In this document: positions 2,385 to 43,820 of the stretch, piece after piece
Layout: each line of letters starts with the position of its first letter
How positions within the stretch are numbered: the stretch's first letter is position 1
Assembly (NCBI GenBank): GCA_029776065.1
Contig: JARVJP010000011.1
Location: 214,961 to 278,960 of the forward strand
DNA: 64,000 bases
DNA from: Nitrososphaeria archaeon
GTDB lineage: Archaea > Thermoproteota > Nitrososphaeria > JACIWG01
Reading direction: 5' to 3'
Program-made: the position numbers and the translations under genes
The notes under the pieces: model-generated
Told to the model about the DNA's origin: nothing
The model's input: only the letters and a program-made list of their open reading frames with translations
The model's database searches: none

Positions 2385-3352
2385 TTTGGCGTTTCATTAT
2401 AAAGAGGGTTGCACTTTCTTTTATCACAGTGCTTACAGTGGTTTTACTCTCCTTCATGATAATCAAACTTGCTCCTGGTGATCCTGCAGTTCTACTTGCT
2501 GGAGCAGGCGCAACCCCTGAATATCTAAAAGCTGTAAGGGAGGCCTATGGACTAAACCTCCCGATAACACAGCAACTAACAATATATCTAACATCAGTCC
2601 TAACTGGAAATCTGGGGCATTCTATAACATACAGTCGTACAGTCATCGATGTTATACTCGGTAGACTGATTCCAACGGTTCTTTTAGCAACTACCTCAAG
2701 TATAATTGCAATAGCCGGCGGCATCTTCCTAGGATTATTCTCTGCTGCAAAGCCTAACTCATTAAGAGACGAACTGATTAACATCTCTTCTTTAGTTTTA
2801 TTTTCAATTCCTGTGTTTTGGTTAGGGTTGTTTATGATACTGGCTTTTGCGGTAAATATCCCTCTCTTCCCCACAGGTGGAATGGCCAGTACTACACCAC
2901 CAACCGGCTTGTACGCTATTTTAGATGTGGTTTGGCACATGGTTTTGCCGGTAGCAACTTTATCCGCAGTTTTTTTTGGTATATACGCTAGGTTAACAAG
3001 GGGTGGACTGTTACAAGCGCTTTCAATGAATTACTCTGTTGCTGCACGCGCAAAGGGTTTATCTGAGCGTGAAATCCTGTATCACCATGCCCTTCGTAAT
3101 TCTCTCCTACCGATAATTTCACTTGCTGGGACTCAGATAAACTTGATAATAGGTGCATTAGTTCTAGTCGAAAACATTTTCTCTTGGCCAGGATTAGGAA
3201 CGTTGATTGTACAAGGTTTCTTGCACAGAGATTATCCATTAACTACTGGTCTTTTGATCTTCTTTGCAATTATCACCGCTTTAATGAACCTTTTCGCTGA
3301 CATACTTAACGCTATAGTTGATCCACGGATTAGGAGTAGTGTTGGTGAATGA
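2381..3352 (+). CDS. ABC transporter permease (OppB/DppB-like)
   Basis: Polytopic membrane protein with a BPD-transporter inner-membrane signature region (...SAARAKGLSEREILYHHALRNSLLPII...). 4-nt overlaps with flanking genes. Confidence 0.85.
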   Translation: MIWRFIIKRVALSFITVLTVVLLSFMIIKLAPGDPAVLLAGAGATPEYLKAVREAYGLNLPITQQLTIYLTSVLTGNLGHSITYSRTVIDVILGRLIPTVLLATTSSIIAIAGGIFLGLFSAAKPNSLRDELINISSLVLFSIPVFWLGLFMILAFAVNIPLFPTGGMASTTPPTGLYAILDVVWHMVLPVATLSAVFFGIYARLTRGGLLQALSMNYSVAARAKGLSEREILYHHALRNSLLPIISLAGTQINLIIGALVLVENIFSWPGLGTLIVQGFLHRDYPLTTGLLIFFAIITALMNLFADILNAIVDPRIRSSVGE

Positions 3353-4182
3353 AGAAACTTAGTTTCCATGGTTTTCAACTAATACCGGTAAAGGGAAGAG
3401 CGATTCTCCCATTAATTCTTCTTGCACCAATAATCCTTTTTGCAGTCTTTGCATATCAGATCGCTCCTTATAACCCTCTCCAAACTGGTGTTGGTGAATC
3501 TTTATCTCCTCCATCAAGTCGGAATTTTATGGGGACGGATCAGCTTGGTGAAGATATCTTTAGTCAAGTAGTACATGGGTCCAGAGTCGCATTGTATGTT
3601 GGAATTACTTCGTCTTTGATCACGGTCTTTCTTGCCTTAGTAATTGGAACCGTGGCAGGGTATCTTGGAGGAATGGTTGATGAGGTTTTAATGAGGTTCA
3701 CAGACGTGGTGCTTTCGATTCCTTCCTTCATTCTTATCATATTTATAGTTATTCTGTTTGGGAGTTCGATAAATGTAATCACACTCGTGATCGGCGTTGT
3801 TTCATGGCCTTCTATGGCGAGGGTCGTCAGGGCCCGAGTACTTTCATTTAAAGAACAAGAATTTGTTCTAGCTGCTAAAGCCCTAGGAGCTAATCCGCTA
3901 AATGTTATGTTATTCGAGATACTTCCAAACATTTGGCTAGGTATCATTCCTGCAATCACTCTGCAAATAGGAAATGGTATACTTACAGAGGCTGGATTGA
4001 GTTTCCTCGGACTCGGCGATCCTAACGTAGCAAGTTGGGGTAGAATTCTGTATTTGGCAAGTACAGCGATCTATTTAGGTTGTTGGTGGGGTGTGCTCTT
4101 CCCAGGGCTTGCAATCATTGTAACGATAATTTCGTTCAATCTTCTTGGTGATGTGCTAGGTACTTCTCTAAGTCCGAAATGA
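3349..4182 (+). CDS. ABC transporter permease (OppC/DppC-like)
   Basis: Polytopic. EAA-like loop region (LAAKALGANPLNVMLFEILPN). Last gene of the operon. Confidence 0.85.
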   Translation: MKKLSFHGFQLIPVKGRAILPLILLAPIILFAVFAYQIAPYNPLQTGVGESLSPPSSRNFMGTDQLGEDIFSQVVHGSRVALYVGITSSLITVFLALVIGTVAGYLGGMVDEVLMRFTDVVLSIPSFILIIFIVILFGSSINVITLVIGVVSWPSMARVVRARVLSFKEQEFVLAAKALGANPLNVMLFEILPNIWLGIIPAITLQIGNGILTEAGLSFLGLGDPNVASWGRILYLASTAIYLGCWWGVLFPGLAIIVTIISFNLLGDVLGTSLSPK

Positions 4183-4246
4183 TGATCAACTTTGGCTGAT
4201 AAAAAGGAAGGCTGTAACTATACCGGTTAATTCATGTTGGAAGCTA

Positions 4247-6106
4247 TTAATAAGTAGGATGTTTTAGTGCTTTGATATCGTTTTGATATAGTTTTAATAC
4301 GAAGTCTGACACTTTTATTATAAGCTCCGTCAACCTTTCCCTGCCCCTAATAATTATTAACGCGTTGATCAGATCGTACATCGATCCAAGGTACCAGTTC
4401 CAAATAATGTTATAGGGGCTCTTATCACTCACTTCTATTTCGTCATAACCTTTGGTTGCCTTTTGTATTCCTTGTAAGGCTGAATCAAGCAACGCTAATG
4501 CTCCTTGCCAACCATAGTCTTGTCTCCATTCAACAGGTCTTTTATAGTTGTAATCTTCGTTTATTCCAAGAATTTGATTTAAGATTCTTAATCTCATTTC
4601 GTCTAAAGTCTGAGCCAATGAGAACGTGTTCGGATTTTCTATCAAAATGGATTCAGCTAATTTCTCACATTTTTCTAGCCTAATTTTCAATTCGACGTGC
4701 CTTTCTTGGAGTGCTGCATCTTCCACTTCGATCTCATCTGGCAACTTAGTTAATCTCGCAATTATACTAGGCCATTTTTGAAGTGCTGTTAATCCGAATG
4801 TAGACTCTGCTCTCTCATCAGTTAACCATTGAGGAGTTGGTTTTAGCGGTTTTAAAGCTAGCTTTGCTACCTCTTTCCTTATTGCATCACATCTTTTAAC
4901 GAGTTTTTTATGTAAATATTTAGGAGCTGACATCGAAGCTGATTTGAAGGGTAAATGCTTAGTGCCTCTTTTCAAATAAGAGCAAGGTACACTACTTGAG
5001 ACAACCCAAAATACGAAGTTAACTATCATCTTTGCAGGTAGATCCCATTTTTCCAGAAGCCAGTCAAGACCGAATTCTGGGTGTCCTCCACAGGCACAGA
5101 CTTTTCCAAGGCCATAGTAACCAGCTATGATCCCAAATCGTTGTTCACTGATCGCTTTGCCAGCATAAGTTTTTTCAAGTGCACCCGTTTCTTTTTGTTT
5201 TGTAGGAGAATGTGTGAATTCAGCAGAAGTCCATTCTTTGGTAAAATCTTTTAATTGTAGTAGCGGGATCGGATCTGAAGCGTCTCTATTTCTTCTTTCT
5301 ATGGGATTGAGAAAGGGACCTAGATGCCATGTCATCTCAAATTCTTCTGGCATACCCAACATGATTGGGTGGTCTTTTCTAATGTTTTTCACAGTAAGCT
5401 TCCCAACTCCTGACATGCCTACTGACCAGTATTCAGCGTTAATAACCTCTAAACTGTACATGCCTCGCCAATCCTTAAAAAGTGGCTTCCAAGAATTAAT
5501 GGTTTCTTCAGGCATATAAATAATGTTACAGCAACCAGCACAGCTACCCCATAATCCTCCGCCTTTGTGCACAAACTCTCTTACGCGTTGTCTTCCAATT
5601 TCACCTAATAATTCTCCTTGAACAGGGGGACCAAGCTCCCCCCCGCCTGGAATTATTAATACATCATAATCTTCAAGTTCTCCGTTTCTGATGTCTACAG
5701 CTGTTAAGTCATTATATTCGATTCCTACATTTGATAAAATGTCTGCGAAGGGGTAGGGTGAACCTCCATCTGCATATAAGGCAACTCGGGCTGGCCGAAG
5801 ATATGCTGCATCAACATCTAATTCTCCAGAAATAGTATGTGCTCTAATTCTCCAATTTTCTACTTCTTTTTCAATCATTTCATAATTCTTTATGGGGTTT
5901 GTACTATAGTTAAACACTTGTCCAAATGGTACCATAATACTACCTGCTGCAAACAAGTTGTTGCTTTTTCCAACTTTAGCATTAAATGAATCTTGCGCCC
6001 AAAGGACAGTTAATCTAGATTCTAGGAGAAAGTTAGCAAACTTAGCTACAGTTCTCCAATCGTTATCATTATCTGAAATGATAATGGTTCTTTTTTCTTT
6101 TTTCAT
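4247..6106 (-). CDS. Uncharacterized 619-aa protein with N-terminal class-I glutamine amidotransferase-like / BPL_N-like domain
   Basis: VLIIPGGG...KGGGLWGSCAGCC resembles the GG-x-Y-L-G-x-C-A-G nucleophile elbow of BPL_N/GATase1-like folds. C-terminal ~300 aa is helical, with no motif I recognise. Confidence 0.35.
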   Translation of the reverse strand: MKKEKRTIIISDNDNDWRTVAKFANFLLESRLTVLWAQDSFNAKVGKSNNLFAAGSIMVPFGQVFNYSTNPIKNYEMIEKEVENWRIRAHTISGELDVDAAYLRPARVALYADGGSPYPFADILSNVGIEYNDLTAVDIRNGELEDYDVLIIPGGGELGPPVQGELLGEIGRQRVREFVHKGGGLWGSCAGCCNIIYMPEETINSWKPLFKDWRGMYSLEVINAEYWSVGMSGVGKLTVKNIRKDHPIMLGMPEEFEMTWHLGPFLNPIERRNRDASDPIPLLQLKDFTKEWTSAEFTHSPTKQKETGALEKTYAGKAISEQRFGIIAGYYGLGKVCACGGHPEFGLDWLLEKWDLPAKMIVNFVFWVVSSSVPCSYLKRGTKHLPFKSASMSAPKYLHKKLVKRCDAIRKEVAKLALKPLKPTPQWLTDERAESTFGLTALQKWPSIIARLTKLPDEIEVEDAALQERHVELKIRLEKCEKLAESILIENPNTFSLAQTLDEMRLRILNQILGINEDYNYKRPVEWRQDYGWQGALALLDSALQGIQKATKGYDEIEVSDKSPYNIIWNWYLGSMYDLINALIIIRGRERLTELIIKVSDFVLKLYQNDIKALKHPTY

Positions 6107-6283
6107 ACCTATGTTATTTATTGATAACTTTTAAAAGTTTTATTGAATATATACTTATACTCTAACAATATTCTTTATGGAAAAGTCAAATTCGATTTGT
6201 TTAATTTCAAATTCTATAAAACTTGGATGGTTAAAATTCATAGTATGATAAGGGATATTACCAGCGTTTAAGAAAGGTATTGT

Positions 6284-7051
6284 TCAGGCAGATCTAATTA
6301 GGTCTAGGCTTAGCCTAGCCCCCTTTAGTAGTAATGAGATATCCGATGTTAGAGTTATCATCTTGAAACCTTTCTTCAGATATTTTACTGCGTCTTGGCC
6401 ACCACTTGTGTATATTCCACCAGGCTTACCAGTCTTCCTTCCTGCTTCAAGGACTGTGTCTATTGCCGACTTGAAGGTTTCACATTCAAAATCAAGAGGA
6501 AAACCTAGAGAGACTGAGAGGTCGTATGGTCCTATAAAGAAGGCGTCAATACCATCGGTGGATAAAATGTCTACAACGTTATCTAAGGCTTCCCGTGTTT
6601 CTATTTGAGCGATTAAAGCAACGTCATCTTTTGCTCTTTTCCAGTATGTAGGGTCTAAGCCATATACAGCGGCTCTTCTAGGCCCCCATCCCCTTATACC
6701 TTCAGGAGGGTACCTGCAGGCTCTTACCGCGTTTATGGCTTGTTCCTTGTTGTTCACCCAAGGCACAAGGATGCCTTCTGGGCCGACGTCTAAGGCCAGC
6801 TTGATCATAACTGGGTCGTTCCAAGGGACTCTGATAATAGGGGATACATTGCTCCCATTTAGGGGCTGTATGAGTCTTTGGACTGTCTCGATAGTTAGTG
6901 GGGCGTGTTCCGTGTCAAAAACTAACCAATCGAATCCAATTCTAGAAAGAGCTTCTGTGACATCCGTATTATTTATAGTGATCCAGGTTCCAACTGAAAC
7001 TTTGTTTTCTTTTAAGATCTTTTTCAACTTTCCAGTCACAAACTCGGTCAT
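6284..7051 (-). CDS. HpcH/HpaI family aldolase (2-keto-3-deoxy-sugar-acid aldolase type)
   Basis: Full-length similarity pattern to 2-dehydro-3-deoxyglucarate/4-hydroxy-2-oxovalerate aldolases: ...WLVFDTEHAPL..., ...IAQIETREALDNVVDIL..., ...FFIGPYDLSVSLG... Confidence 0.8.
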   Translation of the reverse strand: MTEFVTGKLKKILKENKVSVGTWITINNTDVTEALSRIGFDWLVFDTEHAPLTIETVQRLIQPLNGSNVSPIIRVPWNDPVMIKLALDVGPEGILVPWVNNKEQAINAVRACRYPPEGIRGWGPRRAAVYGLDPTYWKRAKDDVALIAQIETREALDNVVDILSTDGIDAFFIGPYDLSVSLGFPLDFECETFKSAIDTVLEAGRKTGKPGGIYTSGGQDAVKYLKKGFKMITLTSDISLLLKGARLSLDLIRSA

Positions 7052-7121
7052 TAAAATCGCATTGTTTGCAATTATCGTCTATATAATTCTTATTATATGT
7101 GAGAAATAAAGTTATATTTAA

Positions 7122-7631
7122 TTGGCTTCTGTACACTATATGATGTTAAAGGTCCTAGTGGTCTCTGATACCCATTGTTCTACGCTAAACCAACTGCCAA
7201 AAAAGGTGATCGACGAAATTAGTAAAGTGGATGCAATAATTCATGCAGGAGACTATACAAGCATCGATCTAGTGAATGAGCTTAAATCTAGTAAAAACTT
7301 CTTTGGCGTATATGGGAACATGGATGACTTGAAGATAAAAACATCGTTAAGTGACCAATTGCTACTTGAATTGAACGGTTTTAAGATAGGTGTTACACAT
7401 CCACCTGAAGGCGGGCCACCATTTGGTATAAAGAAGAAGGTTATAGCCCAATTTGATGAAAAACTTGACGGAATCATCTACGGCCACACGCATAAACCTG
7501 AGATAATAGAGTCAGAGGGTGTTCTTTTTATGAACCCTGGTTCAACATCAAAACCATTTCCTATGTGCCCCAAGGCTATGATCATCCTAACCATATCAAA
7601 TAAGCTTGAGCCTAAGCTAGTTAACCTCTAG
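7122..7631 (+). CDS. YfcE/MJ0936-type metallophosphoesterase (phosphodiesterase). Probable real start at the ATG ~18 nt downstream (MMLKVLVVSDTHC)
   Basis: Motifs VVSDTHC, HAGDYTS, GNMD, GHTHKP typical of calcineurin-like phosphoesterases of the YfcE family. AT-rich TATA-like element ~25 nt upstream of the internal ATG suggests a leaderless transcript. Confidence 0.8.
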   Translation: MASVHYMMLKVLVVSDTHCSTLNQLPKKVIDEISKVDAIIHAGDYTSIDLVNELKSSKNFFGVYGNMDDLKIKTSLSDQLLLELNGFKIGVTHPPEGGPPFGIKKKVIAQFDEKLDGIIYGHTHKPEIIESEGVLFMNPGSTSKPFPMCPKAMIILTISNKLEPKLVNL

Positions 7632-7788
7632 ACATATTATTCAAATTATTGTACTAAGTGATTTTTATGGTGCGTTTAAACGCTCTTAGATTAGTTTAGG
7701 TTGTAGGAGTTTTGTGTTATGTGAGACCATTGTTTGAGTGGAGAGTTTAGTAACAATTTTTGGAAACGTTAATATAAGAATTGAGTAG

Positions 7789-7857
7789 ATGTTTGTAATG
7801 CGGGTGGTGGTCCTCCCACTGTTCCGCAGAATAAATCCCGGTAGGGAGGTAGAAAGT
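7789..7857 (+). promoter_or_regulatory. Structured 5' leader with potential Shine-Dalgarno-sequestering hairpin upstream of QueT-like transporter
   Basis: CCTCCC (7812-7817) can pair with GGGAGG (7844-7849), which is the SD for a TTG at 7858. A GCGG...CCGC stem lies just upstream. Confidence 0.3.
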
Positions 7858-8352
7858 TTGGGCATAAAAAATAATAGTAGAAAGGTTCTTACTTTGTCTA
7901 TCTTAATTGCTGCTATATACTCTGTTCTCACAATAGTTCTTTCTCCTATAAGCTATCTCGCAGCTTTTCAAATACGAGTTGCTGACGCGTTGATCCCTTT
8001 GAGCTATAATAAAAAGATCAGTAAAGCAGCCATATATGGTACTGCTTTAGGCGCCTTTGTAGCTAATATTTACTCTTTCTACGGCGTCTACGACATGTTG
8101 ATCGGGACCATTGCAAACTTCGTTGCAAGCTACTCTGCTTATTCGTTATCTAGATACAAGGGTCTCATTCCAAAGTTTCTAGCATCGTTAGTCTCATTTT
8201 TAATAATAGTTTTCCTCATAGGGGTTATACTGTTTCACTTGGTTCTGCAAATACCTATCGAGGTTTCCCTCTTCGGCATTTCGATCGGCTCTTTTATATC
8301 AATAGTAATTTTAGGAACTTTACTATTATTAGGCTTGGAAAAGGTCTACTAG
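7858..8352 (+). CDS. QueT-like (ECF S-component type) queuosine/archaeosine-precursor transporter. TTG start preferred over the upstream ATG at 7789
   Basis: Small 5-6 TM protein with the QueT-family motif RVADALIPL. GGAGGT located 7 nt upstream of in-frame TTG (7858). The N-terminal 23 aa of the longer ORF is not hydrophobic. Confidence 0.6.
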   Translation: MGIKNNSRKVLTLSILIAAIYSVLTIVLSPISYLAAFQIRVADALIPLSYNKKISKAAIYGTALGAFVANIYSFYGVYDMLIGTIANFVASYSAYSLSRYKGLIPKFLASLVSFLIIVFLIGVILFHLVLQIPIEVSLFGISIGSFISIVILGTLLLLGLEKVY

Positions 8353-8360
8353 CCGCTTCC

Positions 8361-9185
8361 TTATTCCCTTATTGTCTGAAATATGGCCTTACCTAATCTA
8401 TCGTTTGCTGCGACTATGCAACTGATTCTTCCATCATAGTCTAAATTTAGATCTTTATCGATGTTTAAGAGTTTGAAGTATGCCCCAGAAATCCTCGCCA
8501 TGTGGAGCGATGCTGCAAGATCCACTACACGTAATCTAGGATAAAGCTCTATGAAAGCGTCCAGTAGACCTACTGAAACATATGCAGACTCTATTGCCGC
8601 ACTACCGATAAACCTTGGATGTCTTATCATCTTTAGTAGTTTTAGGAGGCTCTCTGTGTACTTTGGGTCGTCTGTGTTGTATAGTCTTGGTATTATTGAC
8701 ACTATGGAGTGGTTAAGTTCGCTTACCTTCGACCTTTGTCTATACTCGTTATTATATAGTACACTATCTTGGGTGGCGAGGATTATGTCACCGGTGACCA
8801 CGTTCATGATCCCTGAAGCGAAGACATCGGAGAGTTTATTTCCATTTGCAACCGCTATAGACACGCAGTAGCATGGAAGCCCCCTTATTCCGTTGTTGCT
8901 TCCATCAAGTGGGTCTACTACCGCAACCATTCCCCCTCTATTTACCTCGGTTATCCCTGATTCTTCAGATATAATTGTGTACCCTCTACCGCTTTTCTTG
9001 AATTCATCAATTATTACCATTTCTGATTCAACATCGATGTTAAATGTTGTGTCTCCAAAACGGTTTCTTCCAACTACTCTTATCGACCCCCTGTTTTTTA
9101 AGAGGGTTTGCCTTGCACGGTTTAAAGCTAATCGTATTGTTTCAAGTACTTCTCCCTGTGCCATTTTACGTCGAGGAACCCTCAA
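8361..9185 (-). CDS. Inositol monophosphatase / fructose-1,6-bisphosphatase family protein (archaeal IMPase/FBPase, SuhB-like)
   Basis: Metal-binding motifs EES...DPLDGSNN and WDxAAG-region equivalents. Start may be the internal M (MAQGEV...). Confidence 0.8.
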   Translation of the reverse strand: MRVPRRKMAQGEVLETIRLALNRARQTLLKNRGSIRVVGRNRFGDTTFNIDVESEMVIIDEFKKSGRGYTIISEESGITEVNRGGMVAVVDPLDGSNNGIRGLPCYCVSIAVANGNKLSDVFASGIMNVVTGDIILATQDSVLYNNEYRQRSKVSELNHSIVSIIPRLYNTDDPKYTESLLKLLKMIRHPRFIGSAAIESAYVSVGLLDAFIELYPRLRVVDLAASLHMARISGAYFKLLNIDKDLNLDYDGRISCIVAANDRLGKAIFQTIRE

Positions 9186-35564: not shown

Positions 35565-37496
35565 GTGCAAAAAATGAGAGGAATTTCTCGCACAATATTA
35601 GCTGTTGCAGTGATCGTCTTAGTAGTTATAGTAGGTGCTGTTGCGGTCTTAATGCAACCTCCTACACCAACTATTACCACAACAACCACTACCACCACTG
35701 CTACTACTACAACTGCTACTACTTCCACGACAATCACAACAACTACCGCTACCACCACTACAGCCACTACTACAACTGTCACAACTTCGCCAACAACTAC
35801 GACTACAACGATAAAGCCTCCAAACCCTGACACACTTGTTCAAGAAACGATCGGTGAGCCTGATTACGTTGACCCAGCTGTAGACTATGAAACCGCTGGG
35901 GGAGAGATCATAATGAACGTATACGAAACATTGATGTGGTATGATGGTGAAAGTGCTACAAAGGTGATTCCATGGCTCGCAGAAAGTTACCAGATGTCTG
36001 CTGATGGCAAGAGTTACACATTCACACTCAGAAAGGGTATCAAGTTCCATGATGGTACGCCATTTAATGCGAAAGCTGTCAACTATTCTATTGTAAGAGC
36101 AATACTAATAGCTGACCCTAATGGACCAGCGTGGATGCTCGGGCCATTAAAGGGCGCAGAAGAGTTGATGTATAGTATCCAAGATGGTGTTGCAACACAG
36201 GATGATGTAGCTGCATGGCTTGCCTCTAAGCCAATAGAAGTACTTGACGAGTATACAGTTAGAATGAACCTAGACTACCCGTACTCTCCTTGGCTTTCTG
36301 TTCTAGCATATACTGTTACAGCGATAGTCTCCCCAACTTATGTTGAGGCACATGGAGGTATCGTAGTCGGCGAGCATAATGAATGGATGGATAGGCATGC
36401 TGAAGCAGGAACAGGGCCTTATATTCTAAAGTCCTGGGAACCAAATGTCCTGACATTGGTCAGGAACGACGCGTACTGGGGTGGACCCAAAGGCAATATC
36501 AAACCTGTTCTGAAGACCGTGATCATAAAAGGTGTTGCTGATGCGAATACTAGACTATTAGATCTATTAAAGGGGGACGCTGACTTTGCCTACGTGCCTG
36601 TAACTCACATAGACCAACTGATAGATATGACTACTTGGTTTAACGAAAAGAAGATCGTGGTCAAGCCAGAAGTAGCTGACAAGGTCCGAGTAACAGGACC
36701 ATATGAGACGTTCAACCTGGACTTTATCGCCTTCAACCTGAATATCAAAGATGAGATAACAAAACAACCTGCAGCCTTCCAACCATTTAGGGATATAAGA
36801 GTGCGAAAAGCCTTCGTATATGCTTTCGACATAGACCAATACCTTAGAGATGTGGTGAAATATTTCGCTATACAACCAAATGGACCCGTACCCAAAGGAA
36901 TGTTCGGATACAATCCAAGTATACCTACACAACAGTATAATTTAACAAAGGCTAAAGAACTCCTACTACAAGCTGGTCCAGATCTTGGATTTAGCCCACA
37001 GAATCCTAAGACCATGACATTATACTACAACACAGGAAACTTAGCCCGTGAAAAAGCAGCCCTTCTAATCGCAAGCGCGATCAACTCACTTAACGTAGGT
37101 TTGGTGATTCAAGTCGTACCACTTGATTGGCCAGCCTTCCTTGCAAAGCAGAGGGCAAGAGCGTTACCATTCTTCGTTCTAGGTTGGGCACCAGACTATG
37201 TTGATCCAGATGACTACCTTATACCATTCGGTCACGGTCAGAAAGGCACTTTCCCAATAGTAATTGGGTACAATAACCCTGAATTAAACACCTTGATTGA
37301 GCAACAAGCAGTTGAAGCAGATCCTGTGAAGAGGCAAGCGATAATAGACCAGATAGTGAACACTTTGAACTCAGAGTACATCTACCTTTGGACCGCTCAA
37401 GCAACTGCACGCCATGTTGAAAGAACATGGGTAAAAGGTTGGTACTATAACCCAGCTTATCCAGGCAACTATTTTGCAACAATATCTAAAGGGTGA
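35565..37496 (+). CDS. ABC transporter substrate-binding protein, family 5 (oligopeptide/dipeptide), N-terminally anchored with poly-Thr linker
   Basis: N-terminal TM, ~50-aa Thr-rich low-complexity linker, then full SBP_bac_5-like domain. Followed by permease and ATPase genes. Confidence 0.9.
   Translation: MQKMRGISRTILAVAVIVLVVIVGAVAVLMQPPTPTITTTTTTTTATTTTATTSTTITTTTATTTTATTTTVTTSPTTTTTTIKPPNPDTLVQETIGEPDYVDPAVDYETAGGEIIMNVYETLMWYDGESATKVIPWLAESYQMSADGKSYTFTLRKGIKFHDGTPFNAKAVNYSIVRAILIADPNGPAWMLGPLKGAEELMYSIQDGVATQDDVAAWLASKPIEVLDEYTVRMNLDYPYSPWLSVLAYTVTAIVSPTYVEAHGGIVVGEHNEWMDRHAEAGTGPYILKSWEPNVLTLVRNDAYWGGPKGNIKPVLKTVIIKGVADANTRLLDLLKGDADFAYVPVTHIDQLIDMTTWFNEKKIVVKPEVADKVRVTGPYETFNLDFIAFNLNIKDEITKQPAAFQPFRDIRVRKAFVYAFDIDQYLRDVVKYFAIQPNGPVPKGMFGYNPSIPTQQYNLTKAKELLLQAGPDLGFSPQNPKTMTLYYNTGNLAREKAALLIASAINSLNVGLVIQVVPLDWPAFLAKQRARALPFFVLGWAPDYVDPDDYLIPFGHGQKGTFPIVIGYNNPELNTLIEQQAVEADPVKRQAIIDQIVNTLNSEYIYLWTAQATARHVERTWVKGWYYNPAYPGNYFATISKG
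35690..35815 (+). repeat. Low-complexity ACN-codon (poly-Thr) coding repeat within SBP gene
   Basis: Run of ACT/ACA/ACC/GCT codons encoding TTTTTTTTATTTTATTSTTITTTTATTTTATTTTVTTSPTTTTTT. Generates spurious antisense ORFs (35552-35833, 35649-36050). Confidence 0.9.
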
Positions 37497-37524
37497 TTAC
37501 ACCCTTTTCCTCTTTTTCTTTTAG

Positions 37525-38565
37525 GTGATTTTTTTGAAATTATATGAATATTCTATAAGGAGAATATTCTTGTTGATTTTTGTGTTATTAGGTGTAACCA
37601 TTCTTACCTTTTATTTGTCAAGGATAGTTTTGAACCCTCTAGGTGCATACGTCACAGAGAGAACTAGACCTGAAGCAATACCTGCTATTGAAAAGAGGCT
37701 TGGTTTAGATAAACCTTTCTATATCCAATATATAATATATTTGCAAGACTTGGTGACTTTCAACTGGGGTTGGTCTAGGGTAGCGCATATGCCTGTTATT
37801 GAAGCTCTTTTTTATCGTTTTCCCGCAACCGTTGAGCTTGCAATAGCATCATTTATTATCATAATTCTGGTCGGTGTTCCTTTAGGTATTATAAGTGCAT
37901 TAAAGAATAACTCTGTTGTAGATCACGCTATTAGGATTTTCTCTTTAACGGGTATATCTATTCCGGTCTTCTGGCTCGCTTTGACATTGCAATATTCGTT
38001 CTCATACCTTCCAAAGGTCGCTGGCCTACCTAGTCTTCCTTCAAATGGGCGGGTTGACGCCCTTTTATATCAACAGTATCCTGTTAATAGGATAACAGGC
38101 TTGATGATATTCGATTCACTGATACAAGGCAACTTTATAATAGCATCTGACGCTCTGCTACATCTAATACTTCCGGCCATGACATTGGCTTTTCTGAGTA
38201 TAGGGGCTGTAACAAGGGTTGCGCGTTCAAGTATGCTCGAAGTCCTACGCCAAGACTACATATCAACAGCTAGAGCCTACGGGTTACCTGAACGTATGGT
38301 GATATACAAATACGCTCTAAAAAACGCTATGATCCCTGTAACGACGTTAAGCGGTCTTTTGTTCGGCGGGTTATTAGCTGGGGCTATAATAACTGAAAGC
38401 ATTTTCGCGTTCCCAGGTATGGGCCAGCTGACAGTATTCGCCATATCTTCAAACGATTCATACACTATTATGGCGTTTACGGTCTTAGCCTCATTCATTT
38501 ATGTGTTAATAAATCTCTTAGTGGATATAGTGTACGCTAAGCTCGATCCAAGAATTAAGTATTAA
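37525..38565 (+). CDS. ABC transporter permease (OppB-like)
   Basis: Polytopic. Conserved EAA-like region ..STARAYGLPERMVIYKYALKNAMIPV... Confidence 0.85.
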   Translation: MIFLKLYEYSIRRIFLLIFVLLGVTILTFYLSRIVLNPLGAYVTERTRPEAIPAIEKRLGLDKPFYIQYIIYLQDLVTFNWGWSRVAHMPVIEALFYRFPATVELAIASFIIIILVGVPLGIISALKNNSVVDHAIRIFSLTGISIPVFWLALTLQYSFSYLPKVAGLPSLPSNGRVDALLYQQYPVNRITGLMIFDSLIQGNFIIASDALLHLILPAMTLAFLSIGAVTRVARSSMLEVLRQDYISTARAYGLPERMVIYKYALKNAMIPVTTLSGLLFGGLLAGAIITESIFAFPGMGQLTVFAISSNDSYTIMAFTVLASFIYVLINLLVDIVYAKLDPRIKY

Positions 38566-38566
38566 G

Positions 38567-39445
38567 GTGATGCCATTGAAAAGTAGACAAACCAGAATGT
38601 TTTTGATGGACCTAAAATTTGCTTTAACTCTGCTAAGAAAGAACAAACTAGTAGTTTCTGGTTTTGTTATGGTGCTCTTCTTCATTTTCCTAGCTCTTTT
38701 CGGCGACTTTATTGTCGACCCAAACATCGCGAAGAGCGTTGATTACCCAAACGCTCTCAAGCCTCCTTCATGGGAGCATCCCTTTGGTACGGATGATAAT
38801 GGTAGAGATATAGTGGCCATGGTAGTACTCGCTGCTAAATACGATTTAGCTATAGCACTATCTGTTATACTGGCGTCAATTGGCGTAGGAATACTGGTCG
38901 GCTCGGTGTCTGGTTACTTTGGAGGAATTATTGATGAAGTAATCATGAGAATCACTGATATATTTTTGGCTTTCCCGGGATTGGTTTTAGCAATGGCGAT
39001 CGCCACTGTTTTAGGAAGGTCCTTTACAAACTTGATGCTAGCTTTGATCATAGTCTGGTGGTCAGGATATGCTAGAATCATGAGAGGTCAATTTATTTCT
39101 GAACGAGAAAAACCATACGTAGCTGCTGCTAAAATACTTAGCGTGCCAAGTTGGAGGATAATATTCAGGCACATTCTCCCAAACGCTATATACCCTATGC
39201 TCGTTGTTTTAACAATGGATATGGGTGGTGTGATATTGACTGCAGCGGGGCTGAGCTTTATTGGCCTAGGTCCATCACCTTTTGAGCCAGAGTGGGGTTC
39301 TCTTGCTTCCAGAGGCGCGGTATACCTCTTTCAAGCGCCTTGGATAATATTCTTCCCAGGTATAATGATCTTATTTGCATGTTTAGGCTTTAATCTTGTA
39401 GGTGATGGGTTAAGAGACGTGTTAGACCCGAGGCTTAGAAGGTGA
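38567..39445 (+). CDS. ABC transporter permease (OppC-like)
   Basis: Polytopic. ..AAAKILSVPSWRIIFRHILPNA.. EAA-like loop. Confidence 0.85.
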   Translation: MMPLKSRQTRMFLMDLKFALTLLRKNKLVVSGFVMVLFFIFLALFGDFIVDPNIAKSVDYPNALKPPSWEHPFGTDDNGRDIVAMVVLAAKYDLAIALSVILASIGVGILVGSVSGYFGGIIDEVIMRITDIFLAFPGLVLAMAIATVLGRSFTNLMLALIIVWWSGYARIMRGQFISEREKPYVAAAKILSVPSWRIIFRHILPNAIYPMLVVLTMDMGGVILTAAGLSFIGLGPSPFEPEWGSLASRGAVYLFQAPWIIFFPGIMILFACLGFNLVGDGLRDVLDPRLRR

Positions 39446-39449
39446 AAAG

Positions 39450-40433
39450 ATGCTGCTCAGTGTAAGGGACTTGATAGTAGAATTCTACACCTATAGAGGT
39501 ATAGTCCACGCGTTAAACGGTGTAAGTTTTGATCTAGATAAGGGAGAAGTTTTAGGACTCGCTGGTGAAACTGGGAGTGGAAAATCTGTAACTGCCTTCT
39601 CTATACAAAGATTACTTCCGGCGAATGCTAAGATTGTGTCAGGCAAGATCGTATTTGATGGAGTAGACCTGCTCGAGCTAAGTGAGGAAAAGATGCGTGA
39701 GATTAGAGGTCAAAGAATTGCAACGATCTTCCAAGACCCTCATACCTACCTTAACCCCGTCTTTAAGATAGAAAGACAGTTTTTAGATGTTCTAAAGTAT
39801 AATGACCCAGAAATCAAGGCTTTAGAGAATAAAAAGGAGGCTGAGAGAATCGCTTTCGAGAAGGCTGTTGAAATGTTGAAAAAGGTCAAGATGCCTGCCC
39901 CTGAACGCGTTCTTAAGATGTATCCTCACGAACTCAGTGGTGGGATGAAGCAAAGAGTCCTACTTGCTATGGCTTACTCTCTGACTCCAGACCTAATAAT
40001 AGCTGACGAGGCCACAACTGCTCTAGATGTAACTATACAAGCTCAAGTCTTGGAAATAATGAAAGAGCTTCAGAAAGAGAAGAACTTGTCCGTGCTACTC
40101 ATCACCCACGATTTAGGTGTTATTGCTGAAAATTGTCAAAAGGCTGCGATAATGTACGCTGGGAGAGTGGTTGAAATTGGGGACGTAAAGAAAGTTCTTA
40201 TTTCTCCAAAGCATCCTTATACACAGGGGTTACTTAAGGCACTACCTAGAACAGATAAGGAAGTTGAACTGGTAGGTATTCCTGGGACGGTGCCAGATTT
40301 GGTGAACCCACCAACCGGTTGTGCATTTAACTTGCGATGCCCCTATGCTAAAGAAATTTGTAGAACGAAGGTTCCTCCTTACACGTTAGAGGAGGGTTCT
40401 ACGGTTGCATGCTATCTTTATGGTGGGAAGTAA
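39450..40433 (+). CDS. Oligopeptide ABC transporter ATP-binding protein (OppD-like)
   Basis: GETGSGKS Walker A, LSGGMKQRV signature, LIIADEATTALD Walker B. Confidence 0.9.
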   Translation: MLLSVRDLIVEFYTYRGIVHALNGVSFDLDKGEVLGLAGETGSGKSVTAFSIQRLLPANAKIVSGKIVFDGVDLLELSEEKMREIRGQRIATIFQDPHTYLNPVFKIERQFLDVLKYNDPEIKALENKKEAERIAFEKAVEMLKKVKMPAPERVLKMYPHELSGGMKQRVLLAMAYSLTPDLIIADEATTALDVTIQAQVLEIMKELQKEKNLSVLLITHDLGVIAENCQKAAIMYAGRVVEIGDVKKVLISPKHPYTQGLLKALPRTDKEVELVGIPGTVPDLVNPPTGCAFNLRCPYAKEICRTKVPPYTLEEGSTVACYLYGGK

Positions 40434-41398
40434 TGGTGACTGAAGTAGTAAAAATAGAAAATCTTACAAAACACTTCCCTATAGTAGGAGGGATTCTTCA
40501 AAAGACAATAGGGTACGTCTACGCTGTGAACGATGTAACAATGTCCGTTCGCGAAGGTGAAACACATGGCCTAGTAGGTGAATCTGGTAGCGGGAAGACA
40601 ACTGTTGGTAGAATTATCGTGAAACTAACTAACCCAACATCGGGTAGAATTATCTTTGATGGCGAAGACATCACTAGAGTAAAAGGTGAAGCGCTAAGAA
40701 ACTATAGAAGAAAGGTCCAAATGGTCTTTCAGGATCCTTACGCATCTATGAACCCTAGGATGACCGTGAAGAGTGCCTTACTTGAAGTTATGAAGATTCA
40801 TTCGATGCATAAGGGCTCAGAGTATGAATATGCAACTAAGTTGATGGAGAGAGTCGGAATGAGTGAAGAACACCTCTATAGGTATCCACACGAGCTCTCC
40901 GGTGGTCAAAGACAGAGGGTTGTAATAGCAAGGGCTCTCAGTGTAGAACCAAAGTTCATCGTGTTAGATGAGCCTACAGCATCGTTAGATGTGTCTGTTC
41001 AAGCCCAAGTCCTTGATCTTTTAAAGGAATTACAGAAGCAGTATAGTTACTCTTACCTACTGATTACCCACAATTTAGCTATAATCAAGTATATAAGTCA
41101 CAGAACTACTGTGATGTATAGAGGGGTATGGGTTGAAACTGCACCCACACAAGAGCTCTTCAAAAACCCTCAACATCCATACACCATCGCTTTAATGTCG
41201 GCTGTACCTGTACCCGATCCAACATTGAGAAGAGAAAAGATAATCCTGAAAGGGGAACCACCGAATCCGATCGAAAAGGTAGTAGCTTGCCCGTTCCAAG
41301 ATAGATGCCCCTATGTTATGGACGTCTGTAGAGAAAAGATGCCGCCAGACACCGATCTAGGAAGTGAACATTTGGTGAGATGTTGGCTAAGAGCGTGA
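40409..41398 (+). CDS. Oligopeptide ABC transporter ATP-binding protein (OppF-like)
   Basis: [29 protein letters not shown]. 25-nt overlap with upstream ATPase gene. Confidence 0.9.
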
Positions 41399-41502
41399 AA
41401 CCTGATTACAAAGACTTTCTAGCCCTGTTTCTAGCATACCTTAGAATTTTACTCCCAATGATTATAATATTCATAGTGATTCTGGTACTTATATCAATCC
41501 TA

Positions 41503-41521
41503 TTCTTCCACTAAAGTGGAA
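41503..41521 (+). promoter_or_regulatory. Perfect 7-bp stem hairpin (TTCCACT-AAA-AGTGGAA) between the opp operon end and the next gene
   Basis: Inverted repeat read directly from the sequence. It overlaps the GTG that the ORF track uses as the start of the 41516 ORF. Confidence 0.4.
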
Positions 41522-42205
41522 ACTTACAAGAGATCTGTTGTCATGGCTTACCTTAACTCAAACACTCTGCTGAAGATTCTCCCCTACTTGAGAGGACGAA
41601 CGTTCTCTATTCAAAAAGTTGCCGATTCAACAGGGCTTCCAGGTGAAACTGTGATCGAAGTACTTTCGCCCTTGATCGAACAGAACTATTTAGAAATAGA
41701 CGAAGATAAGGTATTTGTTAAGAAGAATTCGATCCCCATACTCTCCATACAGGCATTAAAGGCTGGTGCAAGTTTCAACGAAATCCTCAAGCTAGTGGGA
41801 TGGCAGGACTTTGAAGACTTCGTTCACAACCTAGTCTTAGAATATGGTTTTACCTCTTTTAAGAATTATAGGGTGAAGGAGCCAAGAGTCGAAATAGATG
41901 TGTTGGCTTTAAAAGGATCCTTCGGACTTGTAATTGATTGTAAACAATGGCATAAGGTTCTTGGAGGGTCCGATCTAGATCGGGTTGTCGCCAAACAAAT
42001 AAGTCGAGCCAAAGTTTTATTAGCAATTGATAAGAATCTTTTAAAGGACAAGGTTCTAGTTCCTGTAATCGTCACTTTACTTCCCTCTTCTGAAAGATAC
42101 TATTACGGTGTACCTATAGTGCCTTGTGAGATGTTCAAATCTTTTGTTGGGGAGATTGACGGGCGATTAAGTGAAGTTCTGACAATTTCAAGAGAAAGTG
42201 TTTAA
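41516..42205 (+). CDS. wHTH-domain protein fused to a PD-(D/E)xK (restriction-endonuclease-like/Hjc-like) nuclease fold. Probable real start at ATG 41543
   Basis: N-terminal wHTH (..RTFSIQKVADSTGLPGETVIEVLSPLIEQNYLEI..). C-terminal E..GF...R...EIDVLA...GLVIDCKQW matches the E-x(n)-D-x(n)-(D/E)xK nuclease core. Confidence 0.5.
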   Translation: METYKRSVVMAYLNSNTLLKILPYLRGRTFSIQKVADSTGLPGETVIEVLSPLIEQNYLEIDEDKVFVKKNSIPILSIQALKAGASFNEILKLVGWQDFEDFVHNLVLEYGFTSFKNYRVKEPRVEIDVLALKGSFGLVIDCKQWHKVLGGSDLDRVVAKQISRAKVLLAIDKNLLKDKVLVPVIVTLLPSSERYYYGVPIVPCEMFKSFVGEIDGRLSEVLTISRESV

Positions 42206-42311
42206 GAATGCATAGAAATGTCGATGTTCGCAAAAAAGCCACTACTTGAGTAAATTGTTTGAATAATTAATTTCCAATCTTTAAATATAACTAATATGGA
42301 AAAAAAGGTAA

Positions 42312-42689
42312 ATGCGTGATTGTCATTCCGAAGTCTTGAGACGGAGAGCCCTAGGTCTTCTCAATAACGCTAGAGATAACTTTCAGAGGGAGGAGTATGA
42401 TTTAGTATTATTTCACGTAGAGCAGTTTCTTCAGCTGTACCTAAAACGCATTTTATATGAGAAGATAGGCACTTATATAAAAACCCACTCCCTAACATCA
42501 CTCTTAAAGGAGCTTCAGAAGGTTTACGAAGACAAAGCCTTATTCGAGTTATACAATTCAAATATAGAAACTATAAATCTACTCGAAGACGCGTATATAA
42601 CGTCCAGGTACCTTCCAAGAGAATACGATAAAGAGGTAGCCGAGAAAGTGTTAAAGTTTGCGGAACAGACCTTGGAGGTGTTGCGATGA
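42312..42689 (+). CDS. HEPN-domain protein (HepT-like toxin component)
   Basis: All-alpha ~125 aa, HEPN-family ..EDAYITSRYLPREY.. region. Directly followed and overlapped by an MNT gene. Confidence 0.6.
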   Translation: MRDCHSEVLRRRALGLLNNARDNFQREEYDLVLFHVEQFLQLYLKRILYEKIGTYIKTHSLTSLLKELQKVYEDKALFELYNSNIETINLLEDAYITSRYLPREYDKEVAEKVLKFAEQTLEVLR

Positions 42690-43039
42690 GCATAAGAACC
42701 GAAGTGGATGTACAGCTCGAAATCTTGAGTGCCTTCAAAAAGTACTATGAAAATGTAAACCATTATGTTAATAAGATTAAAGCCCTAGTTAGGAAGTACG
42801 ATCCCTCAGCAAGGGTTATTTTGTTTGGGAGCTATGTTAGAGGAAATATGGGGCCTGACAGCGATATTGACGTACTCCTGATCACAAGGCTTGCGAGTGA
42901 TGTGAAAGAGAGAGTTAGACTGAGAATAGAGATTAAAAGGGCAATAGGCGATCTAACACCCTTCGAAATACACATTGTGACAGAAGAAGAATACAAGAGC
43001 TGGTATAAGAAGTTTATAGATCAACATGTAGAGGTCTAG
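42686..43039 (+). CDS. Minimal nucleotidyltransferase (MNT/MntA-like antitoxin component)
   Basis: GS-x(9-13)-DxD motif: LFGSYVRGNMGPDSDIDVLL. 4-nt overlap with HEPN gene. Confidence 0.8.
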   Translation: MSIRTEVDVQLEILSAFKKYYENVNHYVNKIKALVRKYDPSARVILFGSYVRGNMGPDSDIDVLLITRLASDVKERVRLRIEIKRAIGDLTPFEIHIVTEEEYKSWYKKFIDQHVEV

Positions 43040-43125
43040 AGATGGAATTTGTTCTTCTCTACCTTCTTGTATAGAAGCTATTAGTTAAAATTCCAATCAT
43101 TCTATTTAGAAATAAGCACAAACTT

Positions 43126-43527
43126 CTATTTTTTCGATCGTCCCTCAAGAAGTTGTCTTATCTTCGTTACCTCTTCAAGAATCCTATCATTTACTTTTTC
43201 TTCGTATGTCTCAACTGCTTGCGGTTTCCTGCTTTTAATATAATTCATTATGGTCTCTCTTAAGGATTCGTAGTTCTCCACACATTCTATTCTTATTTCA
43301 GCGGAAGTCTTTTGAGCTGAGTACCCTGCTGTTTGGATCTTAAGAGAGGCGACCTTTAGTCTTCTTGATAAAGGCCATTGGGTTACATCTATGTTCGTTA
43401 TTCTATTGTATGGTACTATACCAGTTGTTTTGAACCATACGCCTCTTCTCCAGACTATCTCGTTTTCGGTAAGCCTATAGAATACCGTCTCATAGTATCG
43501 AGGTATCCAGACGAAGGCTAAAGACAT
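43126..43527 (-). CDS. Bacterial-type PH domain protein (bPH_2 / DUF304-like)
   Basis: ..YRLTENEIVWRRGVWFKTTGIVPYNRITNIDVTQ.PLSRRLKVASLKIQTAG.. matches the YdbS/YdbT PH-domain consensus. Confidence 0.6.
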   Translation of the reverse strand: MSLAFVWIPRYYETVFYRLTENEIVWRRGVWFKTTGIVPYNRITNIDVTQWPLSRRLKVASLKIQTAGYSAQKTSAEIRIECVENYESLRETIMNYIKSRKPQAVETYEEKVNDRILEEVTKIRQLLEGRSKK

Positions 43528-43820
43528 AAACTAGAAAAAATATAGCAAACAAAGAGACTAAAGCTACTTCTTGCACAAACAGGATAAGGGGAATGTACTA
43601 AGAAAGAAAGCCTCCAAAGAACACTATGTTCAGGTAATAGCTGTAAAGTCTCTTAAGTTGGGATGCGGGTTTAAAATCTTCTCCAATATTCACCTTTGTC
43701 CTTTCCATCTAGCTAAAATCAACGGTGCCGCTCCTTATATTCCTTTACTCTATATTATATTATAAAGTTGGAATCAGGTATTAGAATGAAAGTCATGTTA
43801 GAAAATATATTAGTCGTTAA

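Follow-up and report, generated by a model that had tools for sequence, protein, structure and literature searches.

A class-wide winged-helix PD-(D/E)xK protein of the Nitrososphaeria and an adjoining HEPN/MNT cassette

The type IV restriction enzyme Mrr of Escherichia coli carries an N-terminal winged helix followed by a nuclease domain. A core of the same PD-(D/E)xK fold, with the residue pattern E...D...(D/E)xK, is found in the Pfam families Mrr_cat (PF04471) and NERD (PF08378) and in the structurally solved protein AF1548 (PDB 1y88). Systems that pair a HEPN protein with a minimal nucleotidyltransferase (MNT) include the type VII HepT/MntA modules of Shewanella, Aphanizomenon and Legionella and a thermophile-associated COG1708/COG2250 pair that was set apart from the DUF86-type pairs (Makarova 2009, PMC2701414). 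Relatives of both kinds of system lie side by side in a stretch of 64,000 nucleotides from a Nitrososphaeria archaeon (assembly GCA_029776065.1, contig JARVJP010000011.1, positions 214,961 to 278,960), the whole of which we refer to as the window. Here, a gene for a winged helix-turn-helix (wHTH) domain fused to a PD-(D/E)xK nuclease core is followed by an overlapping HEPN/MNT pair, and an original prediction, made from the sequence alone, had treated the three genes as a single defence- or addiction-like islet. The comparison presented below leads to a different picture, in which the interval probably consists of two unrelated units, a nuclease gene present throughout the class and a mobile HEPN/MNT cassette.

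The gene context was compared in 92 related loci. Loci are numbered with the prefix L, the window's own record being L093 and its closest relative L001. The nuclease gene adjoins a HEPN/MNT pair only in the window and in L001–L003, where the nucleases show 86% identity; this is not so in L004–L092. The trio, when checked in related genomes, is therefore not kept beyond the species of the window and its closest relatives, and the cassette landed beside the nuclease gene only in this lineage. The nuclease itself is a vertically inherited chromosomal gene across the class Nitrososphaeria, the streamlined marine ammonia oxidisers included, a distribution that speaks against the defence-type role it had been assigned.

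Three co-directional open reading frames (ORFs), at 41516 or 41543 to 42205, 42312–42689 and 42686–43039, lie 3' of an opp-type ABC operon. Their main features, in window coordinates, are as follows.

41543..42205, plus strand: wHTH::PD-(D/E)xK gene for a protein of 220 aa (start at the conserved ATG), defined by family searches, an AF2 model and fold matches
41558..41719, plus strand: winged-helix domain, residues 6–59, with secondary structure H-E-H-H-E-E, weak TrmB/MarR/IclR/ArsR-type sequence matches in family members and MarR/IclR/Z-alpha-like fold matches
41801..42175, plus strand: PD-(D/E)xK nuclease core, residues 87–211
41813–41815, 41897–41899, 41936–41938 and 41942–41944, plus strand: codons of the predicted catalytic residues E91, D119, D132 and K134, respectively
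42280..42287, plus strand: TTTAAATA, resembling an archaeal TATA box and lying about 28 nt 5' of the HEPN ATG, read from the sequence and of putative function
42312..42689, plus strand: HEPN protein of 125 aa, belonging to the PF05168/COG2250 'HEPN-T' type (PF05168 E 1.7e-26; alignment of 33 homologues)
42686..43039, plus strand: MNT, 117 aa, with G48-S49-x10-D60-x-D62 (NTP_transf_2, PF01909, E 1.5e-15)

The first gene had been predicted to join an N-terminal winged helix to a core of the restriction-endonuclease fold, and this view is borne out both by its motifs (E91, E117-I-D119-VLA and VI-D132-C-K134, with the catalytic signature intact) and by an AF2 model built on nine homologues (pLDDT 89.3, pTM 0.83). 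In the model, the winged helix of residues 6–59 is followed by two linker helices and an alpha-beta-beta-beta-alpha-beta core, which is the restriction-endonuclease-like fold by which the PD-(D/E)xK superfamily is recognised. The window protein scores 19.8 bits against Pfam Mrr_cat (cut-off 21) and 19.2 bits against NERD (cut-off 22.1) and has no match in NCBIfam, in keeping with the earlier suggestion of an uncharacterised nuclease family, given that no curated family contains it. Within the family, 61 of 68 members match Mrr_cat and 50 match NERD (E<0.01; best 1.6e-9), and some give weak TrmB/MarR/IclR/ArsR-type matches for the wHTH domain. A Foldseek search of the PDB with the nuclease model yielded nothing at E<=1e-3, the top match being AF1548, and a single-protein sequence search of the PDB found nothing for the nuclease or for HEPN; the profile of the 68 members reaches AF1548 at E 2.4e-4, with EIDV...DCK aligned with EIDV...ECK.

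Conservation is concentrated in the core. Residues W87, F90, E91, D119, L129, D132, C133, K134, W136, R155 and P174 do not vary among 77 class-wide sequences, and Q152 hardly does. The overall pattern is the same in 68 representatives at 50% identity, where E91, D119 and K134 are invariant and D132 is at least 90% conserved. The mean pairwise identity is 45% for the nuclease core and 27% for the wHTH domain, which is the least conserved part of the protein, and the closest homologue shows 69% identity in the wHTH domain and 94% in the rest of the protein. Positive selection on the wHTH domain was considered but none was detectable, the ratio of nonsynonymous to synonymous divergence (dN/dS) being 0.20.

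AF1548, Mrr_cat and NERD together provide the best sequence and structure match of the nuclease, and the segments EIDV...(I/V)(D/E)CK align residue for residue; AF1548 is, likewise, without an assigned function. The present family differs from them in having a signature of its own (W-x-D-F-E and D-C-K-[HQ]-W, the Cys being invariant), in its fixed N-terminal wHTH domain and in its restriction to a single lineage. We conclude that the gene represents a divergent, uncurated Mrr_cat/NERD branch of the PD-(D/E)xK superfamily with a fixed N-terminal wHTH domain. Public databases list its members as 'hypothetical protein', in some cases at NCBI as 'restriction endonuclease', as 'winged helix-turn-helix domain-containing protein' and, in one case at JGI, as 'predicted transcriptional regulator', and no specific description of a thaumarchaeal wHTH-nuclease emerged from searches of the literature.

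With E. coli Mrr, compared here through Pfam Mrr_cat only, the family shares the succession of an N-terminal winged helix and an Mrr_cat-like domain, but neither the window protein nor any of the 68 members matches Mrr_N (PF14338), and the nuclease is about 90 aa shorter, with a fixed chromosomal position and vertical inheritance as against the patchy spread of Mrr-type genes. A resemblance to Hjc-like resolvases with an extra DNA-binding domain had also been proposed. The additional domain is confirmed, since Hjc (PF01870) is a single-domain protein of about 120–140 aa while the nuclease has 220 aa with a wHTH domain and two linker helices; the likeness to Hjc, by contrast, proved to be distant only, with no PF01870 match in the window protein and weak matches in 3 of the 68 family members. 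Moreover, Nitrosocaldus has been reported to encode a separate Hjc (PMC5797428), so the nuclease family is not the Hjc of this lineage. Unlike Can2/Card1, to which it shows 13–15% identity, the nuclease has a wHTH domain at its N-terminus in the place of the CARF domain that senses cyclic oligoadenylate, and no CRISPR neighbourhood, and a PADLOC match to CARF_PDDEXK is marginal and confined to the nuclease part. The PADLOC matches of the nuclease are marginal throughout (E 5e-4 and 2e-3), and neither PADLOC nor PHROGs assigned the nuclease or HEPN convincingly to a defence or viral family.

A word-seeded search recovered only nine close homologues of the nuclease, whereas an exhaustive profile search of 1.84 billion representatives, clustered at 50% identity, gave 833 matches, 633 of them at E<=1e-10. 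The 150 matches listed range from 140 to 295 aa, most having about 200–260 aa and covering most of the profile length, and the shorter proteins among them look like fragments. A pattern scan of GTDB species genomes found at least 152 species with the nuclease, almost all of them Nitrososphaeria, extending over Nitrosopumilus, Nitrosarchaeum, Nitrosotenuis, Nitrosopelagicus, Nitrososphaera, Nitrosocosmicus, Nitrosocaldus and Nitrosomirales as well as lineages that are not ammonia-oxidising archaea (AOA). The few carriers outside the class are metagenome-assembled genomes (MAGs) of Desulfurococcales/Acidilobales.

The neighbours of the nuclease gene over much of this range are genes for peptide transport. 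In the window, where the nuclease gene is single-copy, the neighbour on the 5' side is:

35565..41398, plus strand: ABC transporter operon of the Opp/Dpp type, with genes for SBP_bac_5, two permeases and two ATPases, conserved on the upstream side of the nuclease gene

Across several taxonomic orders, the nuclease gene adjoins transporter genes of the opp type or for SBP_bac_5, in all in about 45 of 80 loci. In the clade of the window the nuclease gene is co-directional with, and downstream of, the opp genes, and every homologue that is at least 44% identical lies immediately 3' of an opp-type operon of SBP_bac_5, two permeases and two ATPases, often with a small ORF. Relatives with 75–84%-identical opp genes show the order opp, small ORF and nuclease, followed by genes for a HAD hydrolase, glutamate dehydrogenase (GDH) and AP_endonuc_2. 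The HAD, GDH and AP_endonuc_2 genes are absent from the window, which places a synteny breakpoint directly 3' of the nuclease gene.

In the ammonia oxidisers the orientation is divergent, and the gene occupies a fixed slot, SBP_bac_5< NUC> DUF2070< p27-like Zn-ribbon< SUI1> Rce1>, of which the part SBP5< NUC> DUF2070< is kept from Nitrosocaldus to Nitrosopelagicus. An SBP_bac_5 gene of 820–1000 aa lies divergently upstream of the nuclease gene in 29 loci, with 17–100 nt between the two starts in most of them. The divergent arrangement is that of Nitrosopumilales, Nitrosocaldus, Nitrosomirales and some Nitrososphaerales, and was noted over the loci L028, L031, L035, L037–L039, L047, L050–L057, L061–L067 and L073–L086, at about positions 6200–9000 of each. 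In several of these divergent AOA loci the 4.5 kb or so on the upstream side showed no further ABC transporter gene. The intergenic sequences between SBP_bac_5 and nuclease genes are either so similar or so far diverged that operator motifs would not stand out from phylogeny. In other lineages there are different housekeeping neighbours, namely NUDIX and UPP synthase genes in Nitrosocosmicus, genes for TBP, signal peptidase and PriS in L019–L024, and CofC/CofD. The picture that emerges is of a peptide-type transporter gene as the ancestral neighbour of the nuclease, and no defence island was found around the nuclease homologues among the loci examined outside the window. A PCNA gene lies immediately 3' of the nuclease gene and co-directional with it in two Desulfurococcales/Acidilobales MAGs (L082, 541–1983; L089, 4734 to about 6300), which hints at a connection to replication or repair outside the Nitrososphaeria. 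When a PCNA interaction was considered on account of this neighbour, no canonical PCNA-interacting (PIP) box was discernible by eye in the C-terminus.

For the two genes that follow the nuclease gene in the window, the assignment to a HEPN protein and a minimal nucleotidyltransferase stood up well, both Pfam scores being above their cut-offs (PF05168 93.1 bits, cut-off 22; PF01909 57.8 bits, cut-off 21). The 4-nt overlap between them is the sequence ATGA at 42686–42689, and the GS...DSDID motif of the MNT is present as G48-S49...D58-S-D60-I-D62. More fully, F47-G48-S49-x10-D60-I-D62-V fits the pattern hG[GS]x9-13Dh[DE]h and aligns with AF0614 (1ylq), the closest solved relative of the MNT (E 6.3e-07). 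The HEPN protein gave no match to PF01934 (DUF86) at E<=1 and none in NCBIfam, and the MNT reaches 36.3 bits against the NCBIfam MntA equivalog NF047752, for which the cut-off is 60. An alignment of 33 HEPN homologues revealed invariant residues R12, E37, Q38, K45, Y95, S98, R99 and Y100. The motif following R99 is R99-YLPREY-D106, or Rx6D, in which some homologues have E, G, S or T at the place of D106, and H59, located in the sequence KTHS, is conserved in most but not all of the 33.

In none of the aligned homologues does a His occur 4–6 residues after R99, so that the Rx4-6H motif, to which the original prediction had tied its view of the HEPN protein, is lacking. Nor is the pair the classic HepT/MntA system that had been proposed. 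The two kinds share the two-gene logic of HEPN and MNT, the GS...DxD motif and conserved tyrosines near the conserved Arg of HEPN which, by analogy, are potential targets of AMPylation. They differ in that HEPN belongs here to PF05168 rather than PF01934 and has no Rx4-6H motif, the gene order is reversed, with HEPN 5' of MNT both in the window and in the homologous pairs, and the MNT falls below the MntA cut-off.

The features of the cassette are those of the other described class. Both Pfam families are matched, the proteins are encoded in an overlapping operon and are small (<150 aa), the MNT motif is present and the distribution is non-uniform. With the COG1708/COG2250 'thermophile' MNT-HEPN systems ('HEPN-T PF05168' of Anantharaman 2013, PMC3710099) the pair shares its small proteins, overlapping operon, mobility, abundance in thermophilic archaea and a D in place of the H, in agreement with Table 1 of that survey, and we found no substantive difference from that class. 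On the basis of the PF05168 match, and of the correspondence of PF05168 to COG2250 which we take for granted here, the cassette is a regular COG1708/COG2250-type MNT-HEPN module of an already known kind.

HEPN homologues at 55–69% identity occur in Thermoproteota, Asgard, Methanomethylicota and Bathyarchaeia. Overlapping HEPN and MNT genes in the same order, the latter again of 117 aa, are found in L001, L094 and L096–L098, and pairs at 60–69% identity lie in unrelated contexts without the nuclease gene (three contexts examined), one of them between genes for Lactamase_B (a metallo-beta-lactamase) and an aminotransferase. The HEPN/MNT cassette is thus mobile, since it has homologues in several phyla and in unrelated contexts and is absent from the orthologous locus of relatives. 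One 60%-identical pair was seen beside genes for Cas6 and Csa3/CARF-like proteins on an archaeal contig (L094, 174–4728); an association of HEPN with CRISPR loci has been noted in the HEPN literature. In the window, the cassette is separated from the nuclease gene by a 106-nt AT-rich gap containing the TATA-like box TTTAAATA, whose sequence and position suggest that it may serve as the cassette's own promoter and would give rise to a leaderless or short-leader transcript.

The nucleotide sequence of the locus bears what looks like a footprint of recombination. The analysis covers a single genome pair, the window and L001, with few synonymous sites, and the values of synonymous divergence (dS) should be read accordingly. 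They amount to 0.72–1.10 for the opp genes, 0.91 for nuclease codons 1–72, 0.24 for nuclease codons 73–220, 0.22 for HEPN, 0.29 for MNT, 0.46 for the 3' part of the bPH gene, 0.67 for a Na/H antiporter gene and also a low 0.20 for FeoB. Over a block of about 1.5 kb, at 41.75–43.3 kb, the nucleotide identity to L001 is 0.91–0.95 compared with 0.84–0.88 in most of the flanks. This block, 41750–43300, has about half the nucleotide divergence and a three- to fourfold lower dS than the flanking opp genes; it starts at the boundary between the wHTH and nuclease domains and covers HEPN-MNT. It fits a recent homologous exchange of a cassette-bearing segment, with one crossover at the wHTH/nuclease junction.

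In the explanation that we consider probable, the two units have separate roles. The nuclease would be a small, probably dimeric, Mg2+-dependent DNA endonuclease, in which the fast-evolving N-terminal winged helix positions the Mrr_cat/NERD-like PD-(D/E)xK core on DNA and the predicted active site is made up of E91, D119 and D132-x-K134, together with Q152 and R155. It has a few copies in other Thermoproteota, its ancestral position would be immediately next to a gene for SBP_bac_5 or for a peptide-type ABC transporter, and in the window it is probably co-transcribed with the opp operon or read just after it. It is not part of a defence module and may take part in a housekeeping DNA transaction or in transporter-linked DNA binding. 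The HEPN/MNT pair would constitute an autonomous, horizontally mobile cassette with a putative promoter of its own, located at the synteny breakpoint. If the characterised HEPN/MNT systems are a guide, HEPN is presumably nucleotidylated by the MNT, or else bound and masked by it, and candidate target tyrosines are Y95, Y100 and Y105 near the invariant R99; for a HEPN protein without the canonical catalytic His, toxicity as an RNase is presumptive.

Several points weigh against this explanation. The conserved catalytic residues of the nuclease imply, but do not prove, metal binding and catalysis, and the window protein itself stays just under the Pfam cut-offs for both Mrr_cat and NERD. The adjacency to transporter genes, with the 17–100-nt divergent region in AOA, fits a local transcription factor at least as naturally. 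With the His missing and D106 and H59 variable, HEPN may not be an RNase at all. Lastly, the dS argument draws on one genome pair and few sites, and FeoB, too, has a low dS.

Among the rival explanations, a possible one, to which we give rather little weight, is that the HEPN/MNT pair is not a toxin-antitoxin system but a two-subunit nucleotidyltransferase, with an inert HEPN as the substrate-binding subunit in the manner of the C-terminal domain of kanamycin nucleotidyltransferase. The lack of a His after R99 in all 33 homologues, and the variability of D106 and H59, are in accord with this, and HEPN domains without RNase residues are considered to be probably inactive substrate-binding or regulatory partners of MNTs (Anantharaman 2013, PMC3710099). 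The same survey finds MNT 'almost always' 5' of HEPN, according to an antitoxin-first rule, while HEPN comes first here. However, the invariance of R99, E37/Q38, K45, Y95 and Y100 suggests a conserved functional site, Table 1 of the survey lists PF05168 proteins with D for H as possibly active through another His, and mobility and patchy spread are typical of toxin-antitoxin modules.

It is, to our mind, somewhat unlikely that the nuclease-fold protein is a local transcription factor for peptide or oligopeptide uptake genes, with the winged helix binding the opp/SBP_bac_5 promoter and the PD-(D/E)xK part acting as a dimerisation module or as an effector-sensing module for a metal or ligand. 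The transporter adjacency in about 45 of 80 loci, across several taxonomic orders and in two orientations, and with such short distances between divergent starts, is what would be expected of a regulator, and it outlasts operon reshuffling, as in L009 and L016 where the SBP gene stands at the end; the TrmB/MarR/IclR/ArsR-type wHTH matches and the single JGI name also point in this direction. Against this, with a catalytic tetrad invariant class-wide and its lowest conservation in the DNA-binding domain, the protein shows the opposite of what is typical of orthologous regulators. Moreover, the adjacency has been lost in Nitrososphaeraceae/Nitrosocosmicus, in L019–L024 and in the Desulfurococcales copies, with NUDIX/UPPS, TBP/PriS and PCNA genes as neighbours, and the two orientations can be explained by a single ancestral inversion and inherited synteny. 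Because the catalytic site is invariant, the DNA-binding domain poorly conserved and the transporter adjacency lost in several clades, an enzyme is preferred to a regulator, the latter being unlikely. A functional link to the transporter is favoured by the retention of adjacency in two orientations and after operon reshuffling, and by the compact shared promoter region. A broader formulation, in which the wHTH::PD-(D/E)xK family is a Nitrososphaeria-specific factor coupled to the uptake of peptides and organic nitrogen, as a nuclease-fold transcription factor or as a DNA-cleaving or DNA-nicking regulator of the SBP_bac_5/opp genes from the shared compact promoter, is again unlikely; if true, it would add a novel class of regulator to the ammonia-oxidising archaea, in which hardly anything is known of how transcription is controlled.

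Returning to the enzyme model, a further variant would see in the nuclease a type IV restriction enzyme resembling Mrr, domesticated or standing alone, in which modified foreign DNA is recognised by the variable winged helix and then cleaved by the core. This we judge quite improbable. The domain order does parallel that of Mrr, the closest relative among Pfam families is Mrr_cat and among solved proteins AF1548, the wHTH domain diverges fast (69% identity to the closest homologue as against 94% for the rest) and the name 'restriction endonuclease' has been given by NCBI to some members. But stable synteny and class-wide inheritance are unlike the patchy occurrence of restriction genes, Mrr_N is not matched, the dN/dS of the wHTH domain is 0.20 and not >1, and defence-island neighbours are lacking outside the window. 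Highly improbable, and largely refuted by the context data, is the reading of nuclease, HEPN and MNT as one three-gene defence or addiction islet acting together, for although the window and L001–L003 have the three genes closely spaced and in one direction, and the nuclease C-terminus falls with HEPN-MNT inside the low-divergence block shared with L001, the trio is missing from 88 other nuclease loci and from the three HEPN-MNT contexts examined, the AT-rich gap with its TATA-like box lies between the units and the PADLOC matches of the nuclease are marginal.

The region at the 5' end of the nuclease gene carries two further features.

41380..41514, plus strand: small hydrophobic ORF of 44 aa that closes the opp operon on its 3' side, overlaps the end of oppF and is intact in L001 and L007
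41506..41521, no strand: inverted repeat TTCCACT-AA-AGTGGAA, a chance feature with a shuffle-level frequency and not conserved in L001/L003

The repeat had been described as a perfect 7-bp hairpin with AAA between its arms, which is one A too many. It comprises 16 nt, with 7-nt arms and a 2-nt spacer (AA); folded realistically, it would form a hairpin of 6 bp closed by a TAAA loop. Perfect repeats with 7-nt arms occur five times in the window as against 5.5 +/- 1.9 in shuffled sequences, and the form with a 6-bp stem and 4-nt loop 22 times as against 21.3 +/- 3.2. In the relatives with an 86%-identical nuclease protein the repeat is destroyed (TTCCATTAAAATAGTAA), the second arm being mutated and the GTG inside it lost, and in the window it merely spans the TAA stop of the conserved small ORF. 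Owing to this chance-level frequency, non-conservation and overlap with a stop codon, a role as terminator or regulatory element was ruled out, and the hairpin is noise without the significance once attached to it. The GTG at 41516, used as the start in the ORF track for a length of 229 aa, was likewise rejected, since it is absent from the 86%-identical relatives, where the ATG at 41543 is conserved; all nuclease homologues align from that ATG and the gene consequently encodes 220 aa.

The small ORF itself is very hydrophobic and overlaps the second ABC ATPase gene at its end. At the same position it is intact in L001 (5838–5972, 84% identity) and L007 (6787–6921, 61%), and its dN/dS against L001 is 0.12. 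It is annotated as a gene in L007/L008 and unannotated in L001–L003 and in the window's own record. The ORF probably encodes a genuine small membrane protein that goes with the opp operon.

Just 3' of the MNT gene lies a gene for a bPH_2 (bacterial PH domain) protein (43126–43708, minus strand), which is broken relative to its 194-aa L001 orthologue by an in-frame stop at the W of FLSWY and a frameshift. The remaining ORF has 133 aa and is without the N-terminal transmembrane part, and the gene is also split in L003; the disruption beside the cassette reflects either a pseudogene or an assembly error. No structured RNAs or tRNAs that might serve as integration landmarks were found in the window. 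Another opp-like gene set occurs in the window at 404–6106, with two ATPase-like and two permease-like ORFs and no adjoining nuclease homologue, and its proteins are 30–40% identical to those of the second operon.

For annotation, the consequence is that PF05168-type pairs should not carry the HepT/MntA label, as they lack Rx4-6H, have the reversed gene order and fall under the MntA cut-off; in other respects the HEPN/MNT pair is of an ordinary kind and brings no novelty. The nuclease is the more useful outcome. It holds no surprise of principle, since wHTH plus PD-(D/E)xK is a common design and the family is an uncurated variant within a very well known superfamily, but it is compact, has its catalytic residues intact, keeps a fixed position from thermophilic heterotrophs to marine and soil ammonia oxidisers and lacks a curated family. 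The Nitrososphaeria matter globally, and few of their proteins for DNA transactions or regulation have been characterised, so that the nuclease, conserved across the class, with an active site open to testing and a suggestive tie to genes for peptide transport, presents a reasonable target for biochemistry.

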